From an uncultured bacterium (GTDB taxonomy: Bacteria > Omnitrophota > Omnitrophia > Omnitrophales > Aquincolibacteriaceae), in assembly GCA_964482725.1 (NCBI GenBank), contig CAYZYT010000009.1:19832-83831 (forward strand): a stretch of 64,000 bases of DNA, given 5' to 3'. The notes below the pieces were generated by a model. The model saw only the letters and a list, made by a program, of their open reading frames with translations, was not told the origin of the DNA and ran no database searches. Made by a program: the position numbers and the translations under genes. The first letter of the stretch is position 1; every line of letters starts with the position of its first letter. Shown here piece after piece: positions 45-64,000 of this stretch.

Positions 45-3000
45 TTGAGCCCCGATCAAGTTGCCAAAAGTGTTGTGCAAACCGTAAGCTCGAGCTCCGT
101 ATTTTCCGGCACCCTGACAGCCGATCAGCAAAAAGAAAATCCTTCGACGGTCCGTTTCACTCCGGCAGCGAGTTCTGAAATATCAACATCTCAAAATTCC
201 GCCATCATGAAAGCGGCTGCGACCATGGGGCGCGCGGAAGCCCTCCAGCTTGATCCCAGGACAGACGCGGGGCTCGGACAATCCGCCACGGACATCGACT
301 TCAGCGCCAGGGCTCCTGCAGTGCTTCGTGCTGAGATCCGCCCAAAGGCGGATTCATTCCAGACGCCCATCACGGTTCAAGTGGCGCCTTATCGTCAGAT
401 CAAAATGTGGGGCGAGGGGAAGCGGTTGAATATAGCCATTCCGGGCATTACGGTTGTCCCGCTCGATCTTCAGGAAAGTTCTGGCATGGATAAGGTGATT
501 GCCGTACGCCTGAGCGTTTTTGTGAAAGTTCCCGCGGCATCGAGCGAGGATGTTTTTAAAGCCTACAGGGGGGACGTTTCTTTGGCCGCGAAAAAAATCC
601 CGGCATTGGGAAAAAATAAAAGTATTGTTTTTATTCCCAAAACCCCCAAGTCCGCGGAAGTAAAGGATTACGAAAATTGGCAGAGGGTTGTGATCAGCGA
701 TAACCCTGTGAAGGTCGCCATCGATCTTGGAAAGGCGATAGAGATTTTTGTGAAGGCCCGTTCCGAGCAGCGGCGGCCGACCAAGTTTGAGCCCGTGGAT
801 CCTGACACCGTCAAAAAGATGATGGATTTTATGGCATTGATCCAGCGGCCCTTTGATTCCGGGATCCACTTCGGACTTTTCCTGGGCGTTGGGGAAATGC
901 TGGCGGGCGAGCCGGCTTCTATATTAGCGGCGATCCGGCGCGGGAATTCAGGGGAGGCTCAAATTCGTGTGAGATCGCTGATGGAACGACTGAACAAACG
1001 TGTCGTGGCGATGCCCCTCTACTTCAAGAACCTTCGGGCACTTGCTGAAAAACTGGCCGGGATGGAATTGATCGATCCAGAATATCTCGAGACTTTGCAA
1101 TCATCGCTTCGGAAGAAAGAAGAAAAAGCCAGGTCAGAAGAGAGTTCTCTTAAGTCTCAGCTCGGCAAGTCTCAGTACATCAAGCTTTCTTCGGCCACGG
1201 AGGAACGCTCTGAACTCAGAGAAAGACAGGTTTTTGAAGGGGACTTGACCACGGAGAAAACCGTTCGCGGGCATGCGGTCTTTCTTTCGGAGGATAAACA
1301 CGATTTTCAGTGGGCCATGGCCCCCGGTGGAGAATCTTTGGCTGAAACGGAGTATGAGACCTGGTTCAAGATCGTTCACGATGGGATCAACGAGCTTTTT
1401 CTTCCGCCTATGGCAAGGCATCTGAAAATCTTTATTCAAAAAAAGAGGGAAGAGGCAATAAAAAGCAAAAAGACATCCAGCGATCCCATGCTGAAGACTT
1501 CCCACCCGATCGCGCTGGTGCTGGGGGCGGTTCAGGACGGGGTTGCCAAGAATGATATCAAACAGCTTGAAAAAGGATCCGTGGAAGAGAGTCTCTTTCT
1601 TAAGTATGTTGAAGATATGGCGCGTATTTTTAAGATCCAGCGGCAGATCGTCCTTCGCTCGGGAGGCTCTGATGAAGCGGAAAAGATCATCAAGCGTCAG
1701 TTCAGTGTTGCCCTTGAGCTTATGGAGGAGAATATCGCACAAAAAGAGGAGGCACTGGACAGTCAGCGACGACGGCTTGCTTTTTTCCCGCATGCCGAGC
1801 AGCAATTGAAAGACAATGAGATGATCCTTCAGGAGGGACGGGAGGGTCCCACGCCGCTTGATGATGAATACAGGGAAGATCTTGAAGAGAAAAATGAAAA
1901 CTGGCGAGAGATCCTCGAGACGAAAGAGGAGGTCGTGAAGGCGGAAGGCCGTCATGATCTTCAGAAGATGGTTTTGAAGGGGCTGGAGAAACGATTAAAA
2001 CAAGGTGTGGAATCCGAACTGTATTTGGGGAAGACGGATGCGGAAGGGAACCCCCTTGCTCTAGGGATGAAAGACGGAGGGAGTTTGCCTTTTGTTATTT
2101 ATAGTTATGCCCTCAAAAATTTCTTGAGTAAGATTAAAAAATTTGATCTGGAGACAATCGAGGGGGCTCATGGGGCCCAGTCGAATCAGGATAGTGGTAC
2201 GGTTTTTCGTGATATTGCGATGGGTTTGACCGAACGACTGGAATTGGAAATGATCGGAGGCGTGGCGCCTCAGGAAAAAAATATTTCGATCATTTCAGAC
2301 GGAACTCAGCGGATTCTTTTTGTGAGGAGGCCGCTTTCAGCCAATGAGATCCTCCGGGAGGTTTCCCGGTATGGGGCCGACCTGGTCGGGATCGTGGCGA
2401 CTCAGAGCAGCGCCAGTGCCCACTGGGTCATTGTTGTCCGGGGAAGAAATTCCGCGCCTCCGATTTTGTTTCTTTCGGAAAAAAAATATAAGGATATGCT
2501 GAACAAGATCCAGCTCGATGAGGATGTGCTTCTTGTGCCGAGTGATGAAACGGTAGGGCGAGGCGTTTTGAAAACGAATCCTTCTCCCGAAGATTTGGAT
2601 AAGGCTCTTCGGGCCAAAAAAGAAGAAGACCTCTTGGCCCAGGGGGAGAGAAAAATCGGTCAGTTCCCGTTGGGTATTTCTGTCGGGGTCAATCTTAGCA
2701 CGCACGATATCGGAGATCCTCGGGCGAGCGGAGCCGATAATTCGGGGCTCGTCCGTAAAGACTTTTTGGATGATAAGACAAAAAGAGAGATCGAGGATGT
2801 CGGGCAGTCGATCGGGTCCGGCGACTTTAAGTTTGATGAGTGGCTCACGGTCCTGGAAAAATTAAATTTTTCCGACATGAGCAGCAAGGTCGATATTGAT
2901 TCGCTCATGAATAATTTTGTCGGCGTGCTTACGCCTGAGGCCGTGGGACGGATCCGGACCCTTTTAGGACATTTGCGGACGGTTGACGGAAGAGTCCTCC

Positions 3001-6000
3001 GCGACGATTTTTTTGAAGGCGGCAAGTACGTTCCTTTCCGGACCCTCGATCTTCAGCCCGACAGTAAAAATAAAGATCTCCTGGATGCGCTTAAGCGTCT
3101 TCATCGCCAATACCCGAAGGCCGGGCTCATCCAGCTTTCACCGGAAGAGCTCAAAAAGGATCCTCTGAGAAACGGGGTCACGGGATTTGATTTTTATCAA
3201 CATTCGAATTTGGGGAAGTTTTTTCTGATCTGGCAGGTTACGGCCCTTCTTATCGAATATGCCCAACATTTGGATTCGACGGATCAAAAAGATCCGGCGA
3301 AGCTGGCTATTCTTTTCCCCATGGTGGCTTCTCCCGAACAGTTGAAGTTCATTCAGCAGGAAATTCTTCCTGTTGCCCGAAAGCTGGCGGTTTTGAACTT
3401 TGAACGAACAGACGAATGGGATACGCAGTCTTTCCTCGCGGTGCAGGCGAAGGTCCAGAAGGCTTCCGACCGGGTTTCCTACGGAATGATGGTGGAAGTG
3501 ATGGATATCCTGAAAAATGAGTCTTTGATGGATTCCATGGTCCAAAACCCATTTGTGGAATTCTATGATATCGGGACTAACGACCTCGAAAAGGAGCTGT
3601 GGGAGAGTATTGTCAAGGCCCCCGTTGATCGAGATGTCGAAGAAGCTCAAAGGCTTTTCGGAAGATTGATGCCTGATCTGGTCATGGGGCTCGACCGTTT
3701 TGCGAGGAAATTGGCCGATTACAATATGGAAGCCGGTCGGGATCCTGCCCGGAAGCAGAAACGAATGTGCGTTTGCGGGCAGATGGGGGGGAACCAGAAA
3801 TTTCTGGCCTTGGTCGAGCGTTGGCGTCGTTTAAAAGTTCCGGTTTCTGTCAGCGTGGGTCCCGAAGACGTTAGCCATGTGCGTCACGCATTGCTGCGTT
3901 ATTCGCGCGTATCGCAATCCTCCTTGGATGAGGTGTTTGAGGTTCCAAACTATATCGATCGCCGGGCGGGAAAGTTGGCAAAGTCCCAAATGTTGATCTC
4001 AAAAAAATTCCTCAAGGTGGCTGAGGCCTGGCAGGAACGCTATGCCCGAATGGGCTACTATCATGGCTTTTACAGGGATTCCCTAGATCCCGTGACGGGG
4101 ATCGGTAGTTTTCGGGACATTCTGGTCATGCGGGATATTTACAAGCTCTTCGGAGGGAAACAGCCCGATCTTAAAGGAGCTGGAGTTGCTGAAGAGGAGG
4201 ATATGACGCGGGAGGAATTTGAAAAGCTTCTGAATTACGAGAAGGGGAAGAGCGGTCTTTTTGACGAGCAGGTTTGCGCGGCCTTACTGAGTGCTTATGA
4301 TTTTCTGAAAGGAGTGAGACAGGTCTACCGGGAAATGCAAGTGAAAGATCCTCAGAAATTTAAAGAGCCGTTCAATCTTCATACCGGAAATCTGAATGAC
4401 TTTCTCGAAGCTTATGAAGGAAAATTTGGCAAGCAGGAATGGTTGGCGAGGACTGATGCCCAACAGCGGCAGGACCAATTCTTTCGTCATTATTACGTCA
4501 TGGCGAATCATGTTTATACGTCACTGACGGGCATGGTCCACGAAGGCTACGAGGATCTTTTTGGGGCCGATTATGAAGATATCGGGCTTGTAACCGTCAT
4601 TCAGACGGAGAGGGATAGCCAACACAAAGAGGAGGCGATTCCCCTGAGGGTCCAACTTCGGAGCGGGATGTTCTTTAAGCGTGAGGTGGGGCACATTTAC
4701 CGGAAAGTCAAAGAGCTCTATATCCCTGAAGCTTATGAGAGGATGGCGTTCGAGCGCTTTTCGAGAAACCCCGCTCTGATGCTTGAGGTCTTTAGCCGGG
4801 CCGTGGTCGATGGGGACGAAGAGGTTCGTATCAGTTACGATCTCCAGAAGATCATGCGTCGGGCCATTCGGAATGCGGGTCCTGTCTCGTCCGGCGCGGA
4901 CGAGATGCTCTTTAAAAATCTGATCAAGGGCTTTTTTGCTCTCGATCATGACATCTCCTATCCGATTTGGCGCATGCACCGCTTCGGCTTTTTCTCGAAA
5001 TTTCTTCCTGATTATGATGCGATGCCCAATTTTTTCCCCGGCGACGGCCGCCGGAGCTCGGTGCATATCCAGACACTGAACGCCATGGAATTTCTGGAAA
5101 AGCTTTTCAATACGAAGGATTTCGCGTTCTTGCGGGCCGGGTTGGTGCTCCAGCAGTTGAAAGTGGATCCTCAAGATCTCACCACGCTCCGTCTGAGTCT
5201 TCTGATGCTCGGGATCGTTCGGGCCAAGTTACGCCTGAAGCCGGGGAATGTTCCGGCGCCGGCCGACATAAAAAAGATCGTCGCGGAGGCGCTTGCGGCC
5301 TTCGGGATATCCGGTCAGTCGGAGCAGGCTGAGCTTATTGCCTGGTTGATCGAGGGGGAACGGACGTTGAACCGCAATGATCTCTCCGCCCCTGAAAAGA
5401 TCCGAAAAGCGCTTGAAACGATCTTCTTGGAGGAAGGGAAAAACATTACCAGCAAAAAGTGGGACATGCTTTATCTCCTTACTTTTGTGATGAGAGCCGG
5501 CCGGGCGGAGCACGAAAAACTCGTTATGTTGAAACGCGAAGGGCCGGACTCCTCTTTGGCGAATTGCGACAAGCTTTATCTCGCCGGGAAGGTGCTGACC
5601 AAGATCTCGATCCCGCCGCAGGAGTTCGAGCAGCTTGTGGAAAAAACGCAGCGTTTGGAGCGGGATGGATTGCAGGAATTGAATCAGCCGGTCCTGATGC
5701 GGTTACTGACCGGTGAAAAAGCCGATCCGGAAGAGGAAATATCAAAGGCGTGGGCGGATTTTTCACGGAGGGAAGCCGATATTTTGGCCTATTATGAGCA
5801 AAACGAGATTCTCCCTTCCAAATACCGGGAAGCCCTCCATGCCGAAATAGACGCGATGGCGCATCAAAGGACTGTTTTCAAAACGATGTTCCTCAAGTAT
5901 GAAAAAATGGTCTCGCGCTATTACTGGAAAGGGCTCGATCCGGAAACGTTAACGCAGCAGCTTATTTGCTGCATTTCCCTGGAGGTTCTCCAGAGGCATG

Positions 6001-9000
6001 CGGATCACCGGCCGATCCTTCTTTTCAATGCGTTGCCGCAGCATTATTCGAATGCTTTTGAAATTGTATTTGGACGGGTGTCCGAAGATCCGGCGCTGCT
6101 AGCCATTTATTCCCGCATTCTCTACCAAAATGATTTTTCGATAGAAACCGTGAACATTCAAAGAGAAAAAGGCGAGGAAGGGAAGTTCATCGTTCGGTTC
6201 ATGGGGAGCTTTCCGCGTGGGAAACAGGACCTCAAGCCGGTGATGACCGCGATGCGAAAAGATCTGGCGGATATCCTTGATGCCCCGGGAGAAGCGAAAG
6301 AGAACCGGCCGGGTTGGTTCGAGGAACGGGTGCGTCGTCTTTATCGGTTGTTGGGGCCGTATTCGGAATTGGCTCTGTTCGCGGCGAATCAAAGGAATAA
6401 CCCGCTCTTTTTCAGAAATACGTTCAATCGCCATGGCGATCTGGCGGTTCAACGGAGCGGTGGGACGACCCCGACTACGGAAGTTGATTTTTTTGAAGGC
6501 GGAGGGAGAGGGAATTCTTCTTACAATACTCTCACGATCAGCACGGAAGATCGCCGGGGGCTCACCGCGCTTGTGACGAACTATCTATCCTTGATCCGGG
6601 GATTGAATATCTCCGATTTTTCTTTCGAAGATACCCTGGGGAAAAAGACCAAGATGATCGTTCGCCTGAATCATCCCCGAAAAGAAACATGGCAAGAGGC
6701 GCTCTTTTTCCGGATCGTCGGGATCTTTTTCTTTTGGAAGGCCCCTTGGAAAAAATCCAAAGATCGGCTTTCTGAAAAAGAAAAGACGCAGATCAAAGAA
6801 GAGTTGACGAACATGTTGGACGCTTTTGAAGCCGTTATTCATCGCGGACATTTCTTGAATACCTATGCCTTGAAGATCAATGCTTCGGGAACGGTCAATC
6901 CTGCGGATGTTGCGGAGAAATCTTCGGAGGCTTCATCGGAACCTGCTCCCATCGAGGTCGAAGAATCGACCGCGGAAGTGATGCCGAAAGGAGCCGTGAC
7001 GAAAGCCGTTGATTTGCCGGAAATCCCTACCGTCGGAGTGGACGATCCGTCGGCCCGCGAGTATACGATTCAGGGGAGTCTCGGTCTTCACGCGATGCCC
7101 TCGCAGTTGCTGGCTAAATTCGCAATCAATCAGTCTTTTCTTGACGAGGTGATTTTTGAGCAGAAGGGTATTCCAACGGACATGAAGTCCGTCCTCAGCC
7201 TTTTGGAGTTGGGTCAGCTATGGGGAGAGCCTGTTGTGATCAGGATCAAAGCCAAGCCGGAGGCGACGCCGGAGCAGCTCCAGGCGTTTTGGACCTGGAT
7301 TGAGGAGCTTCGGGATCCCGGAGATCCGAAAAATCTTCTCTTCTTTGCCCCGATCAAGCGGTCGGAGGTACGAGTTGAGGAAAAACAGTTTAGTGTCGGC
7401 AATCGCCTCGGTATCCATGTGCGCCCCGCGGGTGTTATCGTGACTCTGGCCGAGGCATACGCAGGCTCGCTCAAGATCAAGATCACTAAGAAGAAAGTCA
7501 CCGTCAATGCAGCAAGCATGATGGGGTTATTGACACTCGATGCCGGAAAGGGTGCCAAGGTTACCATTACCGTGGAAGGTCCCCAGGAGCAGGCTAAGGA
7601 ATTCTGGGACAAGCTCGCGTTGCTTGAGGAAGGGGGTGAGTCCCTTTTCCGTTCGGAGATCCGCGGCAAGGGAAAGATCCTGTTTGTGGATGACGATCCC
7701 GGCATTCAAATGACGGTCGCAGATTCCTTGGCTTTTGTGGGGGGCTACGAGGTGGAAAAGGCTTTCAGCGCCGACGAGGCCCTCGAAATATTGAAGAAAG
7801 GCGATTTTGTCCCCGATCTTATTATTTCGGATTTTTCTATGCCGGGGAAGACGGGCGGCGATCTTGTAAAGGCAATCCGTCTAAGCGCAAACGGGATCGC
7901 GAGAATCCCGGTGCTTATGTTCACGGCGGCCGCGGCACAAATGGATATAGAGAATCTTTATCGTGAGGGCCAGATCACCGGGACGGTGTCAAAAACAAGC
8001 GAGCCGGACAAATTCCACGCCCAGGTCGAGTGGATCCTTCAGAATGAGCAGAGTGTCCGGGAGATCCTGGCTCTTGCGGGGGAAGATGTTGCTGCCAAAG
8101 TTGCCCTGGATCAGGAGATCCTCCAATTTATGCTCCATCCAAACCAGAGCCCTCGCGTTCTAGCGAAACTCCTGGAATTAGGGATCCGTGAAGACGTTCC
8201 CCGATGGCAAGAAGTGCTTGGGGAAGTTCAAATACGCCTCCATCGCGACATCGCAAAAACGCAGGTCGCGCGGGGCCGCTCAGAAATACGGAATTTTACG
8301 GACGTGTTCAACTCTATTCTGATCGTGGATGATCGTTTGGCGAATCGTTATGCCAATGTCCAGATATTGAAAGCCCGAGGATTTAAAGGCGTGATCCATC
8401 AGGCTGCCAGTGCCGCCGAGGCCCGGGACATTATGAAGCAGCAGAAAGTCGACGTTTTGATCCTGGACAGGAAAATGCCTGGCATGCTGGGAACGGAATT
8501 TGCCCGGGAGATCCTTCGGCCGTCAGAAAAACTTGGAGTGAGCGTCGTTCTTTTTACCGCTCAAAAGAAAGAAGCGGAACAGGAATTATCGGGGATCGGT
8601 GATCGGGTTGTGATCGTAGAAAAAGAAGGGGATGATCCCGTGGGCAAGATAGTCAGCGCGCTGAATCAATTAGCCAACCGGTCCGAAACGCGGGAGATCA
8701 CTAATCGTCAGAGGATCGCGCATCTGATGTCCTATCTGGTCAATAACATGACGATGCCCTTAGTGATGGCCACAGATCGTGATGCGGTCAGCATGGAGAG
8801 CCTCAAGTCTTCGATCGGTGAGCTTGTCCTGCTATTCCGCATATTGGATGTGAAAGATATGGAGTCTCGTGGGGAAGAGCTTTTTATCCCCGCCGGGGAC
8901 GACAATGAGAACATTATTGTCCATAAAAAGACCATTGGTCTTGGCGGCAAAACGCCAGGTCAGATTTTTAAGGGAGAATCCTTGGAACAATTAGCGGCGG

Positions 9001-57000: not shown

Positions 57001-60000
57001 ATGACCTTGCTTCTCTCTCTGCGGATGTTCATCAAACGTCGGCCGAGGCGGACCAGGAAGGCCGTGAGGCCGGTGAAATTGCCGGAGAATTGAAAGCCAG
57101 GCTTGAAGGAGAGAACCCGAGGATCGACGGCCTCAAGGGCCGGGCGCAGCAGATCCAGGCTAAAATGGAAAAGATCGATAAGTCCCTCGAGGACATGGTG
57201 AAGGAACTGCAGGAAGCCCGGCGCCATGCGGACGGTCTTCAAAGCAGTGTCAATCAGGTGGCCCGTCGCGTGGAATCTCCGATGCCGCAGATTTCGGCGG
57301 AGGGTGGGTCGACCGCGGGATCAACAGGTTCCGGGGATCCCGGTGCTCATGGCGCGGCGCCGAGCGATAATCGCGAGAGAGCCATGAATGCCAGGGCCGG
57401 CAGCAGGAGCTCCACGGGGATCGAACGGCATCATTCCGTGGATAGCGCGATCGCGGAGCAGATGAAGCGGTTGCTAGCAGAGCCCGAATATCAGGTCGAT
57501 CCGGAAACCATGCGTCTTCCTGCGAAAACCGTCATTCCTCGGATCACGAACAGTCAGTCGGCGGTCTACCAGGCGATCCGCAAGCCCTCGATCCAGTTCG
57601 AGGCGACGCTGCGGAGCAATATTTTGAATGTACTTCACGAACTTGAAACGAGCCTGCTCCTTGCGAACCAGCGGAAGGGACGCATCAACCCGCGGGCCCT
57701 GACCCGGGTGAACACCGGCGATCAGCGGATCTTCCAGCTCAAAAAAATCCCTGACATCAAAAAAATGAGGCTCACGCTTCTGATCGACGTGAGCGGCAGC
57801 ATGTACTCGGACGGCGGCAATCTGGATCTTGATGCTTTCAATCCAGGAGCGCTTGTCGGGAGTAACAGGATCAACAGCGCCATCCGGACCGCGGTTATGT
57901 TTATGGAAGCCTTCGGCAACGATGAGGATATCGAACTTGAGATCATTCTTGTGGCAGACAATGCCCGGATTGAAAAGCCCTTTGACCAGCCGGTGACCCC
58001 TGAGTTTGCTTATCAAGTCGTTTCCAGGATCCTGCATCACAACCTGGGAGGCGGAAATGCCGATCTGAAAGGGCTTAAGCTCGCGGTCGAAAGCCAGGAC
58101 CTTCGGGAAAAAGAAGCCGGCGTTCAACCCAAGATCATTGTGATAGTTGCGGACGGAGGCATCAACTATACGGATAAAGAGGGGATTGAAAAAACCCTCA
58201 CGACTCGCAAAGACATTGCCTGGCTGCCCACGGGAATCGGTCCCGCGTCCGCGGACGTCAAAAATGCCTATGCCCCTTACGGAGAGGTCGTCGATAGCGT
58301 CAATCAGCTCCCTGAAAAGATCGGAGAAAGATTACAGACACAGATCGAGGCGATCGTGGCGGGCGTCACAGGACGCAGTGAGTTGCGGGATCCGCAGCGT
58401 TTCGAGAACTTCAGCGCGTCCATGGTCGAAGCTTCGCGCAATCTTATGAAAGACGGATTTGACTACGTCACGGAGGACGGGAAAACCTACCTCGTTGTTT
58501 CGCCGGAGACGGACGGAAGCCAAAAATATCCTGATTTCAAGGTGCCGGTGCGGGATGGCGTGAGCAATCTGCGCAAGGAGTCCTTTTATGCGTCGCCTAC
58601 CAATATCCGCGATATCACGAAGATCATTTTGAGAGCGCATGATCAGTCGCTTGACCGCACCGCGCTCAACGTCCAGGGAGACGCCGGATCGGGTAAAAAT
58701 AAGAAGATCTATCACGCGGCCCGTCTCATCGGACAGAATGTCCGCTTCATGGCGCTCCATGATGACATCCACGAAGATGACCTTGTGGAGCGGCGGGGGG
58801 TGAACGAACGCTCCGACGGGAAAACCGACTGGATCCCTTCGGCAATTGTTGAAGCCATGTTGAAAGGGGAATGGGTGATCCTCGACGAATACAACAAAGC
58901 GAAGCCGGAAGTGCTCGCCCGCCTCAATCAGATCATTCAGTCCCGCACCGTGACTTTGCATGACGGAACCAAGGTCAAGGCCAAAGAAGGCTTTGCCATC
59001 ATCCTGACCAGTAATCCTCCGAGCGGTTCGGGCGACGCTGCGGTTTATTCGGTCGCGGCGACCTCCGGCGAGATGCTCGACCGTATTCGTACGATCAATA
59101 TTGAATATTTACCGGCGCAGGAAGAACAAGCGCTTCTGTTTTGGACGCTCATGAAAGAGCGCAAGCTTTCGAACACCGACAAGATCAGCCGGGAAGAGCG
59201 GGAATTGATCCTTCAGCTGGTTTCGGCCGCAAATATCAACCGTACCATTTATAACGGGCAGAATGAGTCGGGCCAGAAAGGCACCGGGCGCGGCAGGAAC
59301 ATCGCGCGGCCGCTGTCGACCCGTTCTCTGGTCAATATCCTCAAGCATATCGCGGAGTTTCCCGGTGAGATCCACCGTATGAAATCGGTGATCAAGCGTT
59401 TTTACTCCTACGAGTGGGAAAAACAGGATCAGATCCTGCGCGTCGAAGAGATCTTCAACCACTTCGCCAGTTTAAATCGGGATATGCCGCTCCTGTTTAA
59501 CGAGGAAGATCTCAAAGGACCTGTTTACGGGACGAATGCCCGGGGGAAGCGCGTTCTAAAGTTTAAAGGCCTCGAAGTGCCGGTGAGCGACGATGCTCCG
59601 CAAAGTCTTGAGGAGATACCGCTTGAAGACCGCGTGATGTGGACGCCCACCAATCTCCGGTATCTCTATGATTGCCTCATGGATTTCAAAAAAGGAAGGC
59701 ACATGCTTTTCATCGGCGAGGCCGGAACGGGGAAAGACGTGATCGCGGAATACGTTTCGTGGCTCCTTTACGGTCCGAAAGTCGAGACCTTCGGCGTGAC
59801 GCGCAATGCCATGGTGGAGGATCTGATCGCTTACCTCGGGCTCGGGGAAGGCGAAAGGATGGACAAAGGCGGCATGGTGATCGCGGCCGGGAAGAACGAA
59901 ACGGGGCTTGTGCCGGCGTATGTGATCCGCGCGATGAAAGCAGGCCGTCCGGTCATTCTGGACGAGATCAACAAAGGGAAACCGGAAGTTTTTGCGGTCA

Positions 60001-63000
60001 TGAACAACATTCTCGAAGAAGGCTGGATCGATCTGGCCAACGGGCAGAGGATCTATTCAGAACCCGGATTTTTGATCATTGCGACCATGAACCCCGACAG
60101 CAAACGGACGTATATCGGCAACTATCGCCTGTCGGGAGAATTCATTGACCGGTTTTCCGCTCATAAATTCGATTATCTGAACCGGGAGGAGGAGATCCGT
60201 ATCCTCCGGGATTTTAACCAATACATCCGCAAGTCATCGCCCGATGCTTACAAGAATTTCAGATCTTTGAGAACGGAATTCATTGGGGCGCTCGTAGCCA
60301 TGACAAGCGTTCTAAGGCAGAAATACCAGTCTCAGGAAATCCCGCATCCTGTTTCGATGCGGTCGCTTAAAAAACTGATCGTGACCTTATCCCGGACGCC
60401 GCGGGAGTATTTTGACGCATTTCCCGCCTTGCTTCGCGAGACCTATGTGTTTGAAGACCCCGTTCATAATGAGGCCGTTCTTGCCGCCGCGGTCCAGGCC
60501 GGGTTGCTGCAGCGGCAGCGCGATCTGTACGTTCCCGCGATGGAAGAGATCATCGCCGTGGATATCGCAACAGGCGATGCGGCTCTGGACAACCTCCTTG
60601 TGGATTTGCGTGATAACGGGATCGATGCCCCGAATGTGATACGGATCTTGTCAGCGCTGGACCGGTTCTTGCACGTGCAGATGAAAGATCTGAATGAGAA
60701 TCAAATCCTCGAATTTAAAACCGTTTTTCAGGCGCTGTACGATTTCCGCGTAGCTCGCAAAGGAGTTGCCTGCGTTCAACTGGCCGGGCAAATTCAAAAG
60801 CGCCTGGCCGGCACCCAGACATTCGAGGGCTATGTCCCGGAACTTACAGGCGAGATCCCGATGACCGGTCACTGGGATTTTTCGTCTTCCGTTCATCCCG
60901 AGATCGCCATGTATGCCCAGACGGTCACGGGCATCCTGACCGAAAAGCGGGCGCGATCGAAAGAGCCTTTCTTTTTTACCCGTATTAACGGCCGCAATTT
61001 TCTCGTGGTCCCCGAAGGCACGAAATTCAGCGATATCGAAGAGGTGCTGCGCGTGGAAGGTGTGGAGATGTACGGGGAGCAAGTGCTCGGAAGTCCCGAA
61101 GCGGGTATCCGTCTTCAAAGCGCCTATCAGCTGATGAAGTATCTTCGTGGTTTGAATGTCGGCAAAGAGGCGGTTTTGCCAGACGTCGATCCCAAGGGAA
61201 TCCTCCGCATCGGGGAAACTGAATGGAAGACCATCGCCGAACTCGGCTTGACCCCGGCCTGGGCGCGGAATATGGCGGTCTTTCTTTCCACCGAGCCGAT
61301 CGATGCCATTCTGAAGGAATCTGCATTCCGAGCGGCCGGCCGGGAGCTTATGGCTGCGAATTTTGACGAGCAAAACCGCAAGATCCTCACGACGGTATTG
61401 AAGCTTCAGAACATTAAACCGTTTGATGCCGCGAAGCTGAAGGAACCTCTCATCAAGGGTAAGGCGGATTCCTCGGAGCTTCTGGAAGCCATCAGTTTGA
61501 TGGGGGAATTCAACGACGGCTACCTCGCTGAACTCAAGAGTCTGATCTGGGCTGACGGCGCACCCCTTGTTTATTGGGCGGAGGATGTCCGGGAAGATAT
61601 CGGCCTTGTGACCGAGGTGATCAATGGACGGCAGTTCTCCTACCTTGTGCTGTCTGCCGGATTAAAGGCCAAGATGGACGATTTTGTTTCGGGCATGCTG
61701 AAGCGGAAGGAAAGGACCGCTATCACGGGTTTTCTTTACCTGCTTCTGGTCGATCTCATGACTGACGATGCTTCCCGCGGCGATGCGGATCACGCGTCGG
61801 AGTTTACGGTTGAGGGCAAGATCAAAGGATTTTTTAACCGCGCCTTGGCCTATTACCGTCTGAAGTCAAAGGCCCCCGCGGAATTTGAGGACTGGTTAAA
61901 GATCTACGGCCGCCCGGATTATCAGGCATGGTCTGAGTTTGTCCAAAAATTCACGGAAGAAACCTATATGAGCGATGAGGCGATCAGCGAAGCGGTCCGG
62001 GCTCTTTTCCCGGAGCATACCGACCAGGCGAATCTCGTGGCGGCGCTCGGAAGCCTGCTCCGGGGCTATGGCACATCTGTGTTCAGCGAGTTGAGCCAGG
62101 TCCGCACCCAGCTTGCCTGGACCCGCAACCAGCTTGAAACGGGGCGTTTAACCCGTCCGGGGCCTGAGATCAAACTGCCCGAGGAGTCGGGTCTTGAGCT
62201 GGAATTTTTGAAAATGGTGAACAAGCGCAACACCAATTTTGAGGCCCCTCATGTGATCTCTTACCGGGTCGGAGAAGACGTTTACGCCGCGTCGATCTCC
62301 CGGTCCGGGCAGGGCGGACTGTTCCAGTTCATGCGCCAGGGGAACGGTGCTTACAAAGTCACAGAGATGAATAATGATCACGAGATGATGACTTTCCTGC
62401 GCGGCATTTTTAAACGGGATAAAACAGGATTTCTTGGATCTTATACTCTCGCGGGGAAAACCCGTTTTCTCACGAAGGATCACACCGTTCCGCGTGAATA
62501 TGAGATCGATGAAACCGGCAAGATCCGTGAACTTGAAACGCGGGAGTCTTTGCTGCTTCAGGCCCTCCTTAAAAACCATCCGCCCAAAGAAGAAGAGAGT
62601 AAAAAAGGGGGTGTTTGGGAGAAAAGTATTAAGTGGCTGCGCTCCGTCGGAAAAAATAATCAGCCGATCAATCTTTTCTTGGCCTATCCGCTCGGGGAAT
62701 CGCTACGGTTGGTGAGCTTGGGACAGGACGGGAAGGCCTTCGAATATGAGTATAACGCGAAGGGAGCCTTCCGCGAGCTGGATGCCTCGGAGCCGGGGTT
62801 TGCCGACGTGCTGCGGACCGAACATGGCCGGCAGGTGAACGGTTTGGCGGATGTCTTTAGTTTTATGCTTGGAGACGAGGTGCGTTTTCAAGTGACGGGG
62901 TTTATGGGAAGCAATGTCCAACAGTATCGTCTGGATAAGGATTGGAACCTGGCGCCAGTCGCTGCGGACAAAAATGCTTTGACGGGTCTCATCGTCAACG

Positions 63001-64000
63001 GAGGCGGGAGAGGGCAAAGCTATCGGGCTTATCCGATCGTTCTGGGAGACCGGACCATTCATTTTTTAACGGCGGGACTTGGGACGAAAGTAGTCCTGCT
63101 CCAGCCCCATGTTGAAGATGTGGGCGGCGTTCAGGTCATGGAGCGCCGAGCGAAGGCGCTTGAAGCCCGCAAAGACGAACTTGAATCGGAGATCGGCGCC
63201 CTGGGATTTCTCGTCCAGCGTTCGGAAGTGCGGACAGAACTGCTGTCGGCGGTAGCGGCTGCGGCCCAGCCGTGGGTACCGGTCCTGAAAAGTTTTATTG
63301 CCAGCTCATCGCGGCCGGTAGAAATGGCGATTTTATTCTCTCCGGTGGGGATCGTATTTCTGGGGCTGGCTCGGGGCTATTGGCTGAGCGGCCGGGGGAA
63401 GGTCTCATGGATGTCGCAGAGCGGGGAACAGGCGGCAGCGATCATCCGGGGGATGCTCTGGGGAGCGCTTTTTGCTTCGGCGGCGCCTGTCGCAATGATC
63501 TTTAGAGGCTGGGAGCAAAGTCGGTCCGGAGTGCTTCCTGAAGGTAATATCCTGGGGTGGCTGCCGGATTATTTCATCGTGCTCTGCGCGATTCAGCTCT
63601 ATACGACGGCAGCTTCGCTTTGGGCCTCTCCTCGAAAAATCAATCATAAGCTTCGTCTGTTTATTGCGGGCGTGGTCCCTGTGGTTTATACCGCAGCCGA
63701 ATTCCTTGTGCCTCTGAGCGGGGCGACCGGCATTGGAGCGACCTTCAGTTGGTACGATGTCGGAGCGATCTGGCTTGCGATGGGGACGAGCCTGTTTTTC
63801 AATGCTCAGGAAAAAACAGCGGAAAATCCTAACGCCGTCACTCAACCTGTTCTGCCCTTGCTCGGCGAGAGCAACGCAGGTCAAATCACCCGTTCAGAAA
63901 CTCGGAAAAACATTGCGCAGGCCGAGATGCGGGATAAGGTGATCCGGCACGGTTTTTTTGGGCTGGCGGTGATCGCGGGTACGGCGGCTGTTTTTACCGT
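45075..64000 (+). CDS. Giant multi-enzyme protein, >6300 aa, 3'-truncated by window end (2xGT2, IMPase-like, kinase-like, patatin, CMP/dCMP-deaminase-like, MarC membrane, coiled coil, vWA, 2xAAA+, C-terminal TM)
   Basis: Frame 0 open from stop TAA at 45054 to window end. All track ORFs in 45-64 kb are in other frames. Frame relation verified against track ORFs at 46339, 55780, 63272. N-terminal signal/TM MIQKTSAHKTLIPRFFLKAISLFTVVVFLG. Confidence 0.8.
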   Translation, partial: MIQKTSAHKTLIPRFFLKAISLFTVVVFLGTSFPSQTLAQMPSTSNVTGGIDASLLASASATSGKVQEIVIPSELGTISEAYRGERGTMNVERGAENVSRSPLAVPRHGRMVVLIQDAHAVPDAQRSVEKLIEHLQKEYGVTTVAVEGAEGKLDPTLFRLFPDAEKRKSIFEDYLASGELSGAAAASVLSPYTADYVGMEDWTLYQDGVAAFLAGLGKQVDLKSHISTLKSELQRLKTKYYSEEALAFDAKLGAWNEKQNNLTELLSYLAKFVEVNAQRTTLNVLFEALAQERKAAPKLESEVKQLAKYVHETAPSAKLNGLVQDYRTGRLSLAAFAYELTELISGNKSVILSPKGEESQKRDPSVLPQDDVKIVVSAELRSIIQNHEKLVQMKGPAFIKELEAFVEDVRAKLHTTPEAKAVAVLAKQLQLLEKLSTFELSRSEWEELRAGNGERGTWNGDESIDISQKRILDLYHAPLVADFLSFYEIAIKREAVFKEKLFDLLGVNVSRFPLPAPYATNSVAFVAGGFHTGGLAAKLKEQDIPYVVISPAMKEVPQDNRYFEHMQGKVSWRSYFKPHSGRIDLFDAFNRATTEKLLGGRGQGIGDRKLNPKPYTLYAKEWRDSIIRNLAASGRVAEHAKYTHFIDEQAAGNSEEFQGLKQTWTAKLERFIEKLQFLGKNNQINEANVAKLLSQPANQTPYAVPLVPGATIPESFSGGERATHRGWTESVLTDNAQREIRKPEALTPDRKTLPAAQGRRSEVRISGASRAGENLAHDVRPQVSIVIETTLRDEVFLNQLEKYFSSEKSSEINKQVIIAVDGRSQALQRERFEKLKRLIRGFDPEKSVSHVQFVLVPGTGAVGQGIRNGIAVSTGDVVVLADDRAPLDDEIYLALASPVLQKKSEAVYDASGLYSAIKTRTMKEVRWSKRGPFRDAEIKAKFERLAYKAQVSSVLSSEEQARISARPGVSIFERVRGVLVQAFYSFIPPRSFYYGQYEFEKSMEAMARLPRLAEGEKRKVSVVISSRSGKRFFSPNEEDEGQDALRVKVEQLQTLFALNASYEWELVIVDDASPGGKTGERIAQKAKELFPEFFRSGKIRIIFSKDKKSQKGGGILFGMKDALSRSADYLVYTDVDLSADLRLIGSLLEPIVSTGVGITIGSRGHPRTRIIGKGSFRNISSVIYNSLARFILPIGKIRDTQAGFKAFSRETALAIVPEAKDVGFSFDTDLLLLAMEKGYKVEEIPVYWKDSQVGTSVSVYLWALHMTTGLLEQRIRMSERVLARPGIQPRAVLSILVSRAAIMAIRGIQSFIRAYRRVKSLIPDRPSFKAVPVPGAFELHEAVLDKRTTQEFSEKARVIVSQAGKNLAGFRERIASMDVKTKTEQGLGNRTPVTEADEALQRFIVSEIQRVFPGHFVIAEEKIEDEILRKNRENENSDYVWILDPIDGTKEFLNPGSDYYGISLALYYKGLPVLAVVHSPHFGMIETSSERSGVYLNGEPVRVRQESSIRDRHVVIDDAPQKILGSILAVGKGWKSVSHNTRSVVLNLVGMAASGQDAMAPDLFWKGGDRGPLLWDIAAASYLLKKAGGIAFSVEQGRVVEVEQAIRETILDPAQRGRHFSVLAGTPEAVLAAANALQRNLGGGMSQSTKSQDLVVERVTADQKISAVHFHYDFEIPGNQIAFPIGHAVKPQAPVLLQFKEGSFVFKKVSDSRSRAQYVVSYQKALKQSGLLSVPGLIPLKGRAGQAADDFLVELSDGYYALEEALLQGLEISYAKANLKQFEDLGALIAVFHNTSEGFELEGKKSENPLIAIVDRQKDFETLGIALRIKELMKGTAHLARGEKLFLKNYPMLISQLEILRAHLPGSRYDALPKAFVPADLSLHNMRFSGDGSSALSVYDFGKLRYQPRLEDLKNPAMSLGPEKGRTYNLDVLNAIVRGYQSAAREPLTAEELEALPEFIRGTFLWQYAGWFFLEMAKLNTDDAVYDQAVDLFQYFGRVAHDFPAGPPSPSSAEGRRSELRKGEDVLLPEVSAEGKSEIEKYLSGKTLIHSVFEGGGAKGVAYVGALEELESQNMWFKEVAGTSAGAITAALIAAGYTYPEIKKIVFESDFNQFKDLRWGIVPPWLNLMVFGGLYRGLAFEKWIAEKLKDKLGFEPVFKDLPIPLSVVSSDISNKDMLILDKDTAPDLKVAEAVRMSMGIPFFFEVYRWLGAYKRFPLAVRRMVDGGLLSNFPLFIYDEAGSKGEPVVGFMLQEIPHKKEASKGWISKLLALLKYLPAFHIASAVIETALQGQDNRHIEDDVWAKIVNIPVDVGTLDFDLTLAQKEELAARGKEATRKILGLALRGEKGKDSEVSVASIRSEVRGKSAPDAITGRRIPVSKQLLLPDWARGFIDARQGNQYRTPDERMAVAVELSRLNVENHTGGPFGAAIFERESGRLFAIGVNRVVPQNNSMAHAEMMAFVMAQARLRKFTLDRPGPGLELVTSAQPCAMCFGATPWSGVKSVVIGARGEDVESITGFDEGPIHPEWQKELESRGISVQRDVLRDEAIAELRSYVEQNGVVYNGRLSAAESVDDKQEVKSDASVRSALEPNPTGTSQNAVFQTLRQEHADGRDSQESHRPYLAEGPTSNGSVRSEIRKMWVKVAVAVAAGGLLVSGAFLLDSFLKTFLTILFVVNPIGSAVTFVSMTGEMKDAGKRESLSKKSLIAATAVGALFLFSGNLLFDFMGITLGTFMIAGGALLFTISLTSLTASTSDKRVDPNEMGVVPLGIPLIVGPATLTTLMILRGQYGWPVVIAAFLANMFLTAMLFRYSGKVIAVLGKEGAKVIGKIFNLLLAALGVTLIVKGLLTVFPGLHSDTVRPLSLPKDKPVIESSSQPGANIRFEHARFDLLAKQSGSVPPSRSEVRENTSADFQELSIHKGKQVSEILRAMGRLDHTKVWGVTSRGVLQISWGDWIEHEMNNAMQLLLSGMDLYLLGWGKDNLVTAREGWDKAEDFLMIHKAWREAVRNNFSEVIPKVHSPVAGSSRELALDRIEQPYYFMRTVFIDSPDAENNRELYIRFVDRLENVLMWFGGQVAQEVDKYEKANGPLSPKGAELFSDSRKGRSEVRDDKPLASKTVRLQIPKGIFKSMAQQPAGEPSRPDTAVAGPGPEQAEKSLKKRAVKSTPLIESLRGYYSAREKMLKAIKQGDSLVYEENLFAMAKFSRETVSLDKKKSAIEDAVEELRTSGEESFKTELIGDGLEITRVLSDEFSSVEKEQLSQAYGEFLQALGYDAVNRETLVRELMLITYPLTLMDLMPKSIKDFQTKPRALMDVFQAFESVAFAEGRGALGALIGGDVLDHDLGIHLIKQDDEVLLRSVALHEVTHYLARKNLLPFDVSSEIITQAVTMVILFHGMPYKKAVTAFEGFGSLSKEIVEQAKEDVRKKRRLMEPEELMDWVHKMIVLHKPELLHAPQDAFRDMQERFAGMYLGAYGFFVTENKSESDSLRYVIHYGSKNLPKVNHADYSRKLSSRDWEYIHKVLARLQAIAEVILQEDGIKFTARLKKDMRNMAGVRWYYNQEEHTFYYVPWDILEYGEEGSEGMLLTELFRQMYSRMEFIEGDYDTPEFRLLYGLLDTHRVVGEGIKEFSGREEAVKKFFEKKIRILNLETEKERMAQNPLFVQFSEGVFYYLATDFAESSAKNDPRITNAKVLYALTESYPAILQATALKDEKFYQWIRDEIWPHVKPLIDEDLKKLFDEMMEDEMLRQLLEEQMKEGGEMPDMPGMPGMPGMGQGRGEGNTQAGDLDPEMKAKLQKMLKEKLASMTPAEREAFLKKVKEAYQKQLRKQTDQMSDVTGQTPSSMQPGVGQPSPEQVKAGLSQVANALRGLADQVEGIKGNAGEISSSAGQASQGAAGVSEQADTLSAKPEEMSKGAMQPMDQSLGGLMDKIKALREKTFEFNRKAREIDDQANAFGNIGDAVQDQMKQLLDHADDLASLSADVHQTSAEADQEGREAGEIAGELKARLEGENPRIDGLKGRAQQIQAKMEKIDKSLEDMVKELQEARRHADGLQSSVNQVARRVESPMPQISAEGGSTAGSTGSGDPGAHGAAPSDNRERAMNARAGSRSSTGIERHHSVDSAIAEQMKRLLAEPEYQVDPETMRLPAKTVIPRITNSQSAVYQAIRKPSIQFEATLRSNILNVLHELETSLLLANQRKGRINPRALTRVNTGDQRIFQLKKIPDIKKMRLTLLIDVSGSMYSDGGNLDLDAFNPGALVGSNRINSAIRTAVMFMEAFGNDEDIELEIILVADNARIEKPFDQPVTPEFAYQVVSRILHHNLGGGNADLKGLKLAVESQDLREKEAGVQPKIIVIVADGGINYTDKEGIEKTLTTRKDIAWLPTGIGPASADVKNAYAPYGEVVDSVNQLPEKIGERLQTQIEAIVAGVTGRSELRDPQRFENFSASMVEASRNLMKDGFDYVTEDGKTYLVVSPETDGSQKYPDFKVPVRDGVSNLRKESFYASPTNIRDITKIILRAHDQSLDRTALNVQGDAGSGKNKKIYHAARLIGQNVRFMALHDDIHEDDLVERRGVNERSDGKTDWIPSAIVEAMLKGEWVILDEYNKAKPEVLARLNQIIQSRTVTLHDGTKVKAKEGFAIILTSNPPSGSGDAAVYSVAATSGEMLDRIRTINIEYLPAQEEQALLFWTLMKERKLSNTDKISREERELILQLVSAANINRTIYNGQNESGQKGTGRGRNIARPLSTRSLVNILKHIAEFPGEIHRMKSVIKRFYSYEWEKQDQILRVEEIFNHFASLNRDMPLLFNEEDLKGPVYGTNARGKRVLKFKGLEVPVSDDAPQSLEEIPLEDRVMWTPTNLRYLYDCLMDFKKGRHMLFIGEAGTGKDVIAEYVSWLLYGPKVETFGVTRNAMVEDLIAYLGLGEGERMDKGGMVIAAGKNETGLVPAYVIRAMKAGRPVILDEINKGKPEVFAVMNNILEEGWIDLANGQRIYSEPGFLIIATMNPDSKRTYIGNYRLSGEFIDRFSAHKFDYLNREEEIRILRDFNQYIRKSSPDAYKNFRSLRTEFIGALVAMTSVLRQKYQSQEIPHPVSMRSLKKLIVTLSRTPREYFDAFPALLRETYVFEDPVHNEAVLAAAVQAGLLQRQRDLYVPAMEEIIAVDIATGDAALDNLLVDLRDNGIDAPNVIRILSALDRFLHVQMKDLNENQILEFKTVFQALYDFRVARKGVACVQLAGQIQKRLAGTQTFEGYVPELTGEIPMTGHWDFSSSVHPEIAMYAQTVTGILTEKRARSKEPFFFTRINGRNFLVVPEGTKFSDIEEVLRVEGVEMYGEQVLGSPEAGIRLQSAYQLMKYLRGLNVGKEAVLPDVDPKGILRIGETEWKTIAELGLTPAWARNMAVFLSTEPIDAILKESAFRAAGRELMAANFDEQNRKILTTVLKLQNIKPFDAAKLKEPLIKGKADSSELLEAISLMGEFNDGYLAELKSLIWADGAPLVYWAEDVREDIGLVTEVINGRQFSYLVLSAGLKAKMDDFVSGMLKRKERTAITGFLYLLLVDLMTDDASRGDADHASEFTVEGKIKGFFNRALAYYRLKSKAPAEFEDWLKIYGRPDYQAWSEFVQKFTEETYMSDEAISEAVRALFPEHTDQANLVAALGSLLRGYGTSVFSELSQVRTQLAWTRNQLETGRLTRPGPEIKLPEESGLELEFLKMVNKRNTNFEAPHVISYRVGEDVYAASISRSGQGGLFQFMRQGNGAYKVTEMNNDHEMMTFLRGIFKRDKTGFLGSYTLAGKTRFLTKDHTVPREYEIDETGKIRELETRESLLLQALLKNHPPKEEESKKGGVWEKSIKWLRSVGKNNQPINLFLAYPLGESLRLVSLGQDGKAFEYEYNAKGAFRELDASEPGFADVLRTEHGRQVNGLADVFSFMLGDEVRFQVTGFMGSNVQQYRLDKDWNLAPVAADKNALTGLIVNGGGRGQSYRAYPIVLGDRTIHFLTAGLGTKVVLLQPHVEDVGGVQVMERRAKALEARKDELESEIGALGFLVQRSEVRTELLSAVAAAAQPWVPVLKSFIASSSRPVEMAILFSPVGIVFLGLARGYWLSGRGKVSWMSQSGEQAAAIIRGMLWGALFASAAPVAMIFRGWEQSRSGVLPEGNILGWLPDYFIVLCAIQLYTTAASLWASPRKINHKLRLFIAGVVPVVYTAAEFLVPLSGATGIGATFSWYDVGAIWLAMGTSLFFNAQEKTAENPNAVTQPVLPLLGESNAGQITRSETRKNIAQAEMRDKVIRHGFFGLAVIAGTAAVFT
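45322..45395 (+). repeat. Heptamer-tandem element H1: (GGGGAAC)x2..-(CGTTCCCCGTTAGC)x2, in-frame
   Basis: Encodes GERGTMNVERGAENVSRSPLAVPR. Confidence 0.6.
46121..46188 (+). repeat. Nested palindromic element (GTCATTCTGAG family), in-frame inside giant gene 2
   Basis: CGTCATTCTGAGCCCGAAGGGCGAAGAATCTCAAAAAAGAGATCCTTCGGTTTTGCCTCAGGATGACG; encodes VILSPKGEESQKRDPSVLPQDDV. Confidence 0.8.
46424..46622 (+). repeat. Heptamer-tandem element H2: (GGGGAAC)x3 ... ~140 nt ... (CGTTTCC)x2 CGTTACC, in-frame
   Basis: Encodes AGNGERGTWNGDE ... VNVSRFPLPAP; parallels H1. Confidence 0.6.
46866..46935 (+). repeat. Heptamer-tandem element H3: TAGGGGG TAGGGGA CAGGGGA TAGGCGA TAG - AAAACT - AAACCCT AAACCCT ATACGCT ATACGCT
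   Basis: Arms are imperfect inverse complements of CTAnnCC heptamers; in-frame (GGRGQGIGDRKLNPKPYTLYA). Confidence 0.6.
47420..47760 (+). other. Domain: GT2-like glycosyltransferase (partial/divergent)
   Basis: VSIVIETTLRDEVFLNQ...VVVLADDRAPLDD. Confidence 0.4.
48130..48900 (+). other. Domain: GT2 glycosyltransferase (DPM1-like)
   Basis: VSVVISSRSGKRF...WELVIVDDASPGGKTGERI...LVYTDVDLSADL...DTQAGFKAFSRE. Confidence 0.65.
49250..49900 (+). other. Domain: inositol monophosphatase family
   Basis: VIAEEKIED...YVWILDPIDGTKEFLNPGSDYYGISLAL ... WDIAAASYLLKKAGG. Confidence 0.65.
50050..51050 (+). other. Domain: APH/choline-kinase-like phosphotransferase fold (tentative)
   Basis: FVPADLSLHNMRFSGDGSSALSVYDFGKLRY resembles HGDLxxxN...IDF catalytic/DFG-like loops. 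Confidence 0.3.
51225..52050 (+). other. Domain: patatin-like phospholipase
   Basis: VFEGGGAKGVAYVGALEEL (GGGxKG), GTSAGAITAALIA (GxSxG), MVDGGLLSNFP (DGG). Confidence 0.75.
52330..52640 (+). other. Domain: CMP/dCMP-type zinc deaminase
   Basis: MAHAEMMAFVMA...(24)...SAQPCAMCFGA (HAE...PCxxC). Confidence 0.65.
53000..53640 (+). other. Domain: MarC/UPF0056-like integral membrane region (6 TM)
   Basis: FLKTFLTILFVVNPIGSAVTFVSMT ... MGVVPLGIPLIVGPATLTTLMIL. Confidence 0.5.
57770..58330 (+). other. Domain: von Willebrand factor A (MIDAS DxSxS)
   Basis: LTLLIDVSGSMYSDGG ... KIIVIVADGGINYTD. Confidence 0.6.
58650..59110 (+). other. Domain: AAA+ ATPase (AAA_5/MoxR/midasin-like) #1
   Basis: GDAGSGKNKKIYHAARLIG (Walker A) ... 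EWVILDEYNKAKPEVLARLNQIIQSRTV (Walker B) ... IILTSNP. Confidence 0.6.
59700..60200 (+). other. Domain: AAA+ ATPase (AAA_5/MoxR/midasin-like) #2
   Basis: MLFIGEAGTGKDVIAEYV ... PVILDEINKGKPEVFAVMNNILEEGWIDLANGQRIYSEPGFLIIATMNP. Confidence 0.7.
63270..64000 (+). other. Domain: C-terminal multi-TM region of giant gene 2 (continues beyond window)
   Basis: MAILFSPVGIVFLGLARGYWL..., LFASAAPVAMIF, YFIVLCAIQLYTTAASLW, FIAGVVPVVYTAAEFLVPL. Confidence 0.5.

Follow-up and report, generated by a model that had tools for sequence, protein, structure and literature searches.

A recurrent RSE-hydrophobic-R pentapeptide punctuates giant modular proteins of an Omnitrophota clade and may mark sites of polyprotein processing

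Giant genes of 10-150 kaa (thousand amino acids) are a hallmark of the Omnitrophota, and published work asks whether the products are cleaved or function as a single chain (bioRxiv 10.1101/2023.11.21.568195). In particular, West-Roberts et al. reported that other giants of the phylum carry a C39 or S8 peptidase domain at the N-terminus and suspected cleavage, while stating that information on the cleavage points was absent (bioRxiv 10.1101/2023.11.21.568195). Outside the phylum, the systems that invite comparison are the viral polyproteins and the MARTX toxins (Vibrio RtxA), multi-thousand-residue proteins in which strain-reshuffled effector modules are freed by an in-chain protease that cuts the linkers (PMC6315884). 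Here we describe a pentapeptide, RSE-hydrophobic-R, that recurs along the products of two giant genes in a 64,000-nucleotide stretch of DNA from an uncultured Omnitrophota bacterium (NCBI GenBank assembly GCA_964482725.1, contig CAYZYT010000009.1, positions 19,832 to 83,831 of the forward strand; the whole stretch is referred to below as the window). Our findings strongly support the conclusion that this pentapeptide is peptide-level punctuation between independent, protein-sized modules in one Omnitrophota clade. Every complete giant that bears the motif begins with a transmembrane (TM) helix and a module of ~700 amino acids (aa), which we call m0, and has its first motif at aa 690-790.

Like the viral polyproteins that carry picornavirus 3C, potyvirus NIa/TEV or flavivirus NS3 sites, each giant is one long open reading frame (ORF) of unrelated functional proteins, with a strict and lineage-specific junction site of ~5-7 aa, free flanks and a protease-like domain in the chain. 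The Omnitrophota locus differs from these in being cellular and chromosomal with a conserved syntenic position, in having modules that include integral membrane transporters and signalling domains, and in that its cleavage is putative and its candidate protease is of the Tiki/EreA type whereas the viral enzymes are chymotrypsin-like. MARTX sites are loosely defined, with cleavage after Leu, and are not a strict pentapeptide. The giants nevertheless resemble MARTX toxins in possessing a modular variable region, the order and content of the Omnitrophota modules differing among relatives. Moreover, m0 shares its Tiki-superfamily fold with one MARTX effector, RRSP (PMC6254334), although in MARTX toxins the Tiki-fold domain is cargo and not the processing enzyme that m0 is proposed to be. 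A further difference is that many Omnitrophota modules are of housekeeping type (HPr, REC, MarC), and neither RTX/HemolysinCabind repeats nor a Peptidase C80 domain was detected when both giants were scanned with Pfam (and, for C80, also with NCBIfam). The VENN motif of CdiA, the PxxxxDPxGL motif of Rhs proteins and the recognition sequences of cyanobactins likewise place a short peptide between a conserved part and exchangeable cassettes, and the Rhs and cyanobactin motifs are also proteolytic sites. These systems have one junction per protein or cores of 6-8 residues, whereas the Omnitrophota giants have 6-20 junctions between full-size proteins; Pfam scans of the giants returned no RHS, CdiA, FHA or PatA/G-type domains, and we regard such motifs as conceptual relatives only. 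Closest in content are the giants of West-Roberts et al. (2023) and Nielsen & Lui (2026; 'multi-enzyme metabolic cluster'), which come from the same phylum, are multi-enzyme, TM-containing ORFs, likewise carry phosphoenolpyruvate (PEP)-utilising, REC, HAD, methyltransferase and AAA_5 domains, and have been proposed to bear an N-terminal peptidase-like processing domain. Their N-terminal peptidases are of the C39 or S8 type and have no known cleavage points, whereas the module found here is Tiki-like. The literature that we searched contained no prior description of the RSExR motif, of the Tiki-like N-terminal module or of the C-terminal tail described below.

The two giant genes lie at the ends of the window. 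Giant gene 1 (positions 3-12437, forward strand) is cut by the left edge, with its 3' 4144 codons inside; an exhaustive HMMER protein search recovered its complete product, P0042 (4781 aa, 100% identical), in which window nucleotide (nt) 3 corresponds to aa 638 and the first 637 aa, encoded upstream of the window, comprise the TM anchor together with the greater part of the Tiki-like m0 domain. Giant gene 2 (45075-63998, forward strand) begins with an ATG at 45075 and leaves the window at its right end after >6308 codons. In a six-frame regular-expression search of the window, RSE[VILM]R matched exactly at 14 places, each in frame with a giant gene, and there are five close variants (RSETR twice, RSEQR, RAEIR and RAEVR), for a total of 19 sites, all in frame. 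The first-pass annotation of this DNA had recorded about 14 copies of RSE[VILM]R in the giants; the count holds, but its list had missed the site at 7359 and had included the one at 63891, which is RSETR. It had also put the chance expectation for both giants below 0.1, in agreement with the ~0.06 that we obtain from composition (0.024 + 0.033 for the two giants) and the mean of 0.05 (maximum 2) in 2000 shuffles of the giants. RSEVR is by far the most repeated pentapeptide of both giant proteins, the 32 kb of ordinary genes between the giants contain no motif site, and the sole other match in the window, which is off-frame at nt 48661, is consistent with chance. Note that the relaxed pattern [RK][ST][ED][VILMA][RK] added no matches, which argues that the motif is not a loose charge pattern.

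All of the sites are on the forward strand. In giant gene 1 the first junction after m0 is the RAEIR variant at 327-341 (aa 746 of P0042), with the RSEQR variant at 759-773 and then RSELR at 1206-1220, which opens a 2051-aa module with PEP-utilizers_C and HPr domains. An HPr domain also starts 2 residues after RSEVR at 7359-7373 (we take the numbering of its His15 to be that of E. coli HPr), and RSEIR at 7650-7664 falls 18 aa past the end of the HPr envelope and 3-4 aa before the start of a REC domain; the GKGKILFVDDD that follows this RSEIR is a typical response-regulator N-terminus. RSEIR at 8277-8291 is 8 aa ahead of the second REC domain and the RSETR variant at 8679-8693 comes after it, followed by RSEMR at 9831-9845, RSEVR at 10797-10811 (1-3 aa past the end of the fourth REC domain) and the RAEVR variant at 11580-11594. 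(Between 1206 and 10811 giant protein 1 thus has a PEP-utilising, enzyme I-like domain, two HPr and four REC domains, the content of a whole pathway of the phosphotransferase-system or phosphorelay kind within one ORF.)

In giant gene 2, RSEVR at 47352-47366 marks the end of m0 and is followed by a 1257-aa module with GT2, inositol-monophosphatase (IMPase)-family and APH-kinase domains. RSELR at 51123-51137 lies 30 aa before the patatin envelope, and RSEVR at 52152-52166 lies 9 aa past the confident patatin fold and ahead of the cytidine-deaminase module. RSEIR at 52977-52991 is followed 3 aa later by an extra TM helix, which stands ahead of the 6-TM MarC/NAAT module, and RSEVR at 53781-53795 comes after that module. 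Next are RSEVR at 54390-54404, ahead of a coiled-coil and vWA module of 1328 aa, RSELR at 58374-58388 (its Ser encoded by AGT), after the vWA domain and ahead of an AAA_5/MoxR-like ATPase module of 1615 aa, RSEVR at 63219-63233, before a TM-containing module, and the RSETR variant at 63891-63905, before a further TM segment at the edge of the window. Pfam and NCBIfam coordinates bear out the positions that had been given for the sites relative to the REC, patatin, deaminase, MarC, vWA and TM segments. With regard to the MarC/NAAT module, there is always one extra N-terminal TM helix, with a positively charged flank, directly after the motif (window 52992-53060; P0035; L019 aa 732-760; relatives are cited here as proteins, P, or loci, L), an arrangement that bears on the insertion of TM modules from the giant chain.

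Sites had been placed at domain junctions, and this placement stands; no window site lies inside any detected Pfam or NCBIfam domain envelope, and homology blocks start at the motif. The modules are whole HPr, REC, patatin, deaminase and MarC units, and the HPr and REC modules start 2-4 residues past the motif, their N-termini being native-like. An AlphaFold model of aa 1990-2659 of giant protein 2 is confident in the patatin fold (model residues 44-362), and the flanking motifs, at model residues 28-32 and 371-375, are predicted to lie in linkers with a local-confidence score (pLDDT) below 50. In an all-against-all comparison of the pieces obtained by splitting the giants at each motif, homologous modules aligned end to end (for example, residues 1-378 of a 391-aa module aligned to 1-378 of a 388-aa module). 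From one motif to the next the distance is 11-2051 aa, and its median, 283 aa, is close to the length of a typical bacterial protein. Relatives whose patatin modules are 70-88% identical differ from one another in which modules they carry and in what order; the order is m0, GT2/IMPase/kinase, patatin, deaminase, MarC in the window, m0, MarC, X, patatin in L019/L002, and m0, patatin, ..., X in L005. Of 62 inter-genome homology-block starts other than those of m0, a set in which some loci are duplicates of the same organism, 52% lie no more than 5 aa from a motif versus 2.7% of random positions. Orthologous junctions retain the motif between flanks that have fully diverged, with occasional decay to RAEAR, RAELR or RSESR.

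Across 122 instances the consensus is R(100%)-S(87%)/A-E(100%)-[V>L=M>I>A>T>S]-R(100%), with Ala at position 2 in 16 of them (about 13%). R1, E3 and R5 are invariant, and the 15 residues to either side are unconserved, apart from a slight tendency towards P/A/V/I at -1 and towards a small or polar residue at +1. To judge from this profile, a sharp 5-residue motif with free flanks looks like the recognition pattern of a protease or a short linear motif and not like a structural linker. The first-pass annotation had noted that the underlying DNA is similar as well, a claim that stands only in part. Codons vary (Ser by TCN and AGT, Arg by CGN and AGR, Glu by GAA and GAG), and among 118 sites from 15 loci (the window and 14 others) there are 101 distinct 15-mers, in which the amino-acid-determining bases are invariant and the third positions variable; the flanking DNA shows no nucleotide conservation beyond the motif. 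Because the wobble positions vary and both codon families are used, selection appears to act mainly on the peptide. The wobble positions are nonetheless biased significantly towards CGY-TCC-GAR-NTG-CGG (chi-square p = 1e-13 for R1, 7e-14 for Ser and 5e-6 for R5), and AGY accounts for 5% of Ser codons within the motif versus 30% in the background. Since TCN and AGY are two mutations apart, descent under strong selection can account for the Ser codon family, but not for the CGY and CGG preferences.

The motif is a general feature of related giants and is close to exclusive to them. Relatives of the window giants come from metagenome-assembled genomes (MAGs) labelled Candidatus Omnitrophota. In 34 related giants from Omnitrophota MAGs and metagenomes (142,314 aa) there are 267 sites of the relaxed form R-[SA]-E-x-R versus 4.2 expected, and 174 of the strict form RSE[VILM]R versus 0.9 expected. 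At the loci examined, giant ORFs (at least 1100 aa; 73,302 aa in all) carry 143 sites, or 1.95 per 1000 aa, compared with two sites, or 0.03 per 1000 aa, in the other, neighbouring ORFs (63,230 aa); both of these sites are in ORFs cut by contig ends, which are probably fragments of giants. Thus, in a comparison that covers the neighbouring ORFs, a motif density beyond the giants similar to that within them was not seen, an outcome that favours the observation. Scanning species-representative genomes with the patatin-to-MarC stretch returned giant ORFs of Omnitrophota MAGs with 7-10 sites each, the ordinary ORFs beside them having none. A metagenome scan with the N-terminal module returned 38 loci, and at all of those with at least 28% m0 identity and enough downstream sequence the motif punctuates a giant ORF, reaching 12 sites in 4047 aa. 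The exhaustive HMMER search recovered, besides full-length P0042, 20 giants, and the full-length proteins that it returned measure 3.8-7.8 kaa and carry up to 20 sites. (Querying a word index for homologues of the first 1000 aa of giant protein 1 returned nothing.)

Giant or multi-domain proteins of other lineages carry different pentapeptides. P0062 (7836 aa) has no RSExR and 14 copies of GAR[LM]A; P0058 has seven copies of [GA]AR[ML][SA], one of them 4 residues from the C-terminus, and P0057 three copies of the same motif; P0047 has eight copies of RAE[KRL]R; and P0001 (L051 10001-13783), from another Omnitrophota genome, has AASLG three times, at domain junctions. What these alternatives have in common is that position 2 is small and position 4 hydrophobic. 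Lineage-specific alternatives of this kind would be as expected from co-evolution of a protease with its substrate.

The ends of the giants are constant. Both window giants carry m0, in copies that are 25% identical and represent two paralogous subfamilies. The m0 of giant protein 2 (45075-47351, forward strand) has a signal-anchor-like N-terminus with a TM anchor at aa 11-29, the residues D117-x-H119, E147 and H531, and a final segment (residues 697-759, the 63 residues ahead of the first site) that is predicted to be disordered in the m0 model. The core parallel beta-sheet fold of the Tiki/EreA/ChaN/TraB superfamily is present, and none of the four residues D117, H119, E147 and H531 varies among 46 m0 sequences that reach down to 22% identity. 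Bcr135 H85/E113 and RRSP H3902/E3930 belong to a 2His/2Glu catalytic motif (PMC6254334); the 28-residue spacing from His to Glu in m0 matches that of Bcr135 and RRSP, and the first acidic residue of m0 is Asp117 where the 2His/2Glu constellation has Glu. Compared with the Tiki/TraB/PrgY/ChaN/erythromycin-esterase superfamily, m0 is distinguished by Asp in place of the first Glu, by a helical insert of about 330 aa that splits the fold, and by the fact that no Pfam model reaches threshold on it; one of ten m0 sequences weakly matches PF04187 (Cofac_haem_bdg, 'Tiki superfamily'; E = 2e-4). A sequence-profile search of the PDB with m0 returned coiled-coil noise only, and Pfam and NCBIfam scans of the window giants, L002, L003 and L005 detected no classical protease domain (C39, S8 or C80). 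At the other end, complete giants finish with a conserved tail, ...NAIQGYLQIQTAA or ...QASLKILVSA, that always ends in [AS]A-COOH; it is encoded at 12396-12434 (forward strand) in giant gene 1, whose product ends in ...NAIQGYLQIQTAA, and is also present in P0042-P0069, L005, L032 and L034. This tail could be a sorting, secretion or degradation signal.

Three minor observations concern these ends. Standalone Omnitrophota patatin proteins end in ...TERISA. The N-terminal anchor of the giants, ...[KR]AISLFTVIVFLCSD... (window 45075-45170; P0034-P0039), resembles the N-termini of standalone Omnitrophota patatins, RAIAMIVACLFLVND (P0002-P0005), a likeness that suggests a shared, lineage-specific targeting signal. 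Finally, a variable loop of m0 (window 45350-45410, aa 95-110 of giant protein 2) has a short repeat insert, GERGTMNVERGAENV, and the corresponding loop of L022 and P0038 has YGVRSTEYGVR repeats; such repeats look like simple-sequence DNA insertions tolerated in frame.

We lean, with some reserve, towards the reading that the motif is a site-specific proteolytic processing site of a bacterial polyprotein. Processing is favoured because the motif is free of its flanks, exclusive to giants, placed in linkers, selected as a peptide, variable by lineage and found together with a hydrolase-like domain; that the motif is cut, at which position and by which enzyme, we infer. In such a scheme, an operon's worth of enzymes, transporters and signalling proteins would be translated as one chain, and a site-specific endopeptidase would recognise RSE-hydrophobic-R and cut the chain into separate proteins. 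The candidate for this endopeptidase would be m0, a membrane-anchored module of Tiki/erythromycin-esterase/ChaN fold at the start of the chain, and the cleavage code would differ by lineage, being RSExR here and GAR[LM]A or RAE[KR]R elsewhere. Released modules would work independently, with insertion, loss and reordering tolerated as long as the sites were kept; such independence upon release would explain both the varied module order and the homology blocks that start at the motif. Among the modules m0 is the best protease candidate because it heads every complete motif-bearing giant, has invariant residues and falls in a superfamily that includes Tiki and RRSP, both sequence-specific endopeptidases, but the assignment is a weaker inference than that of processing itself and we consider it doubtful. 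The scheme as a whole, in which operon-like sets of proteins are true polyproteins with a lineage-specific cleavage code read by an N-terminal, membrane-anchored Tiki-fold protease, is put forward tentatively.

Several observations weigh against processing, or against m0 as its agent. In distant m0-bearing giants (L037-L050; 2.6-3.5 kaa), motif discovery returned no recurrent junction motif, so m0 alone does not predict the motif and may have another job; the m0 of L037-L050 keeps the same invariant D-x-H...E...H residues. The two m0 paralogues of one genome are only 25% identical and share one motif, and a reader acting in trans would thus fit at least as well as m0. The Tiki superfamily also includes esterases and a haem-binding protein, and the weak Pfam match is confined to just one of the ten m0 sequences. 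No split-gene variants were found at the junctions, and the wobble-base bias is not accounted for by a purely peptide-level function. In addition, when crude hydropathy is used and the N-terminal helix is treated as a normal signal anchor, sites and ATP-dependent modules fall on both sides of the membrane, a predicted topology that would not sit easily with one membrane-tethered protease unless the chain is cut before it is inserted.

An uncleaved chain is the alternative that has to be taken most seriously, although we think it unlikely. Here the giant would stay intact and the RSExR of its linkers would be a docking or recognition motif bound by a chaperone, a translocation or membrane-insertion factor, a scaffold or m0; modules might be handed one by one to a secretion or assembly machine, or the chain held in register. 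A sharp 5-mer with unconserved flanks in disordered linkers, exclusive to giants and variant by lineage, fits docking as well, the conserved N-terminal anchors and the C-terminal tail ...NAIQGYLQIQTAA suggest that the whole chain is handled as a unit, and many giants of the phylum are regarded in the literature as intact proteins anchored in the membrane. However, unrelated, complete and protein-like modules in freely permuted order are easier to tolerate if they are separated, some linkers leave 2-4 residues before the next fold and hence little room for a partner, and the uncleaved topology suggested by crude hydropathy would split modules that depend on ATP or nucleotides, and are typically cytoplasmic, between the two sides of the membrane. 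Far less probable is that the motif is a modification site whose invariant Ser (or Arg) is phosphorylated or otherwise modified so as to regulate each module. The Arg at -1 and Glu at +1 of the Ser do resemble some kinase consensus contexts, and giant protein 2 has an APH-type kinase and giant protein 1 a PEP-utilising/HPr/REC phosphotransfer chain; but the sites with Ala at position 2 rule out Ser as an obligatory acceptor, the alternative motif GAR[LM]A is without Ser, and kinase modules are not constant among the giants.

Two explanations dispense with a function of the peptide. The first-pass annotation had raised a recombination or module-shuffling junction, and this is supported only in the weak sense that modules have been exchanged between genomes exactly at these points. 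That the 15-nt CGY-TCC-GAR-NTG-CGG itself acts as a microhomology or cassette-swap site, with the peptide a by-product, is in our estimation improbable. The wobble bias and the scarcity of AGY Ser codons described above speak for such a site, but the bases held invariant are those that determine the amino acids, few of the 15-mers recur, the flanking nucleotides are unconserved and show no inverted-repeat architecture, and every site is read in the same frame and from the same strand of coding sequence, with Ser from both codon families. Moreover, 15 degenerate bases are too few for homologous recombination, and to our knowledge the motif DNA is unlike known recombinase sites. To artefact or chance (genes fused in assembly, a non-standard code, low complexity or a DNA repeat family) we give almost no credence. 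The general rarity of ORFs this long is all that speaks for it, whereas the same architecture and motif occur in independent assemblies from many studies, ordinary genes have standard stops and no motif codon is fixed, hence no hidden stop, and 14 sites were observed against the shuffle expectation of 0.05. Two other candidates were tried and rejected. For an internal ribosome-binding site or start, only the GAG-GTG versions are Shine-Dalgarno-like, GAG shows no enrichment (47% versus 41%), and no start codon follows; for a hidden stop or alternative code, no codon of the motif is fixed and the neighbouring genes use standard stops. We know of no likeness between the motif and 2A-like ribosome skipping or the motifs of intein, SEA or GPS autoproteolysis.

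A strict and countable junction motif gives exact candidate cut sites, so that the question stated in the literature becomes directly testable; it also allows giants to be split in silico into modules for prediction of structure and function, and offers a ready explanation of rapid module turnover. Were cleavage true, it would amount to virus-like polyprotein expression of housekeeping-type proteins in bacteria, and the substrate-specific protease involved would be a new one, recognising five residues and possibly of use as a tool. Were the fuller scheme of polyprotein, cleavage code and Tiki-fold protease true, it would represent a previously unrecognised gene organisation and mode of proteome evolution in cellular life, in which punctuation makes modules freely insertable and exchangeable.

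Between the two giant genes the window is ordinary bacterial chromosome, with genes for LeuRS, MnmA, ComEC, HolA, a BamD-like TPR protein and glycosyltransferases that end at standard stop codons, and with three tRNA genes (12649-12723, 26425-26497 and 26582-26665) that are the only matches in an Rfam scan of the window. Synteny is kept on the 5' side of the m0A-type giant gene (window 34038-45075; L003, L005 and L013-L025), the conserved order being ComEC, a ~1005-aa TPR/BamD-like protein, HolA, a 617-aa protein, a ~505-aa protein with an HhH-like C-terminus (UvrC-like by eye) and the giant gene. The m0A-type giant locus is thus orthologous across relatives, yet hypervariable in module content. 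Directly 5' of giant gene 2, and overlapping its start, are three direct repeats of ~84 nt (44844-45078), each with a hairpin (GGCCGTCCCAATAC ... ATTGGGGCGGCC). The hairpin arm ATTGGGGCGGYC also occurs just 5' of the giant ORF in L013 (7880) and L017 (1067), and the repeats before giant gene 2 may be a regulatory element of its 5' untranslated region.

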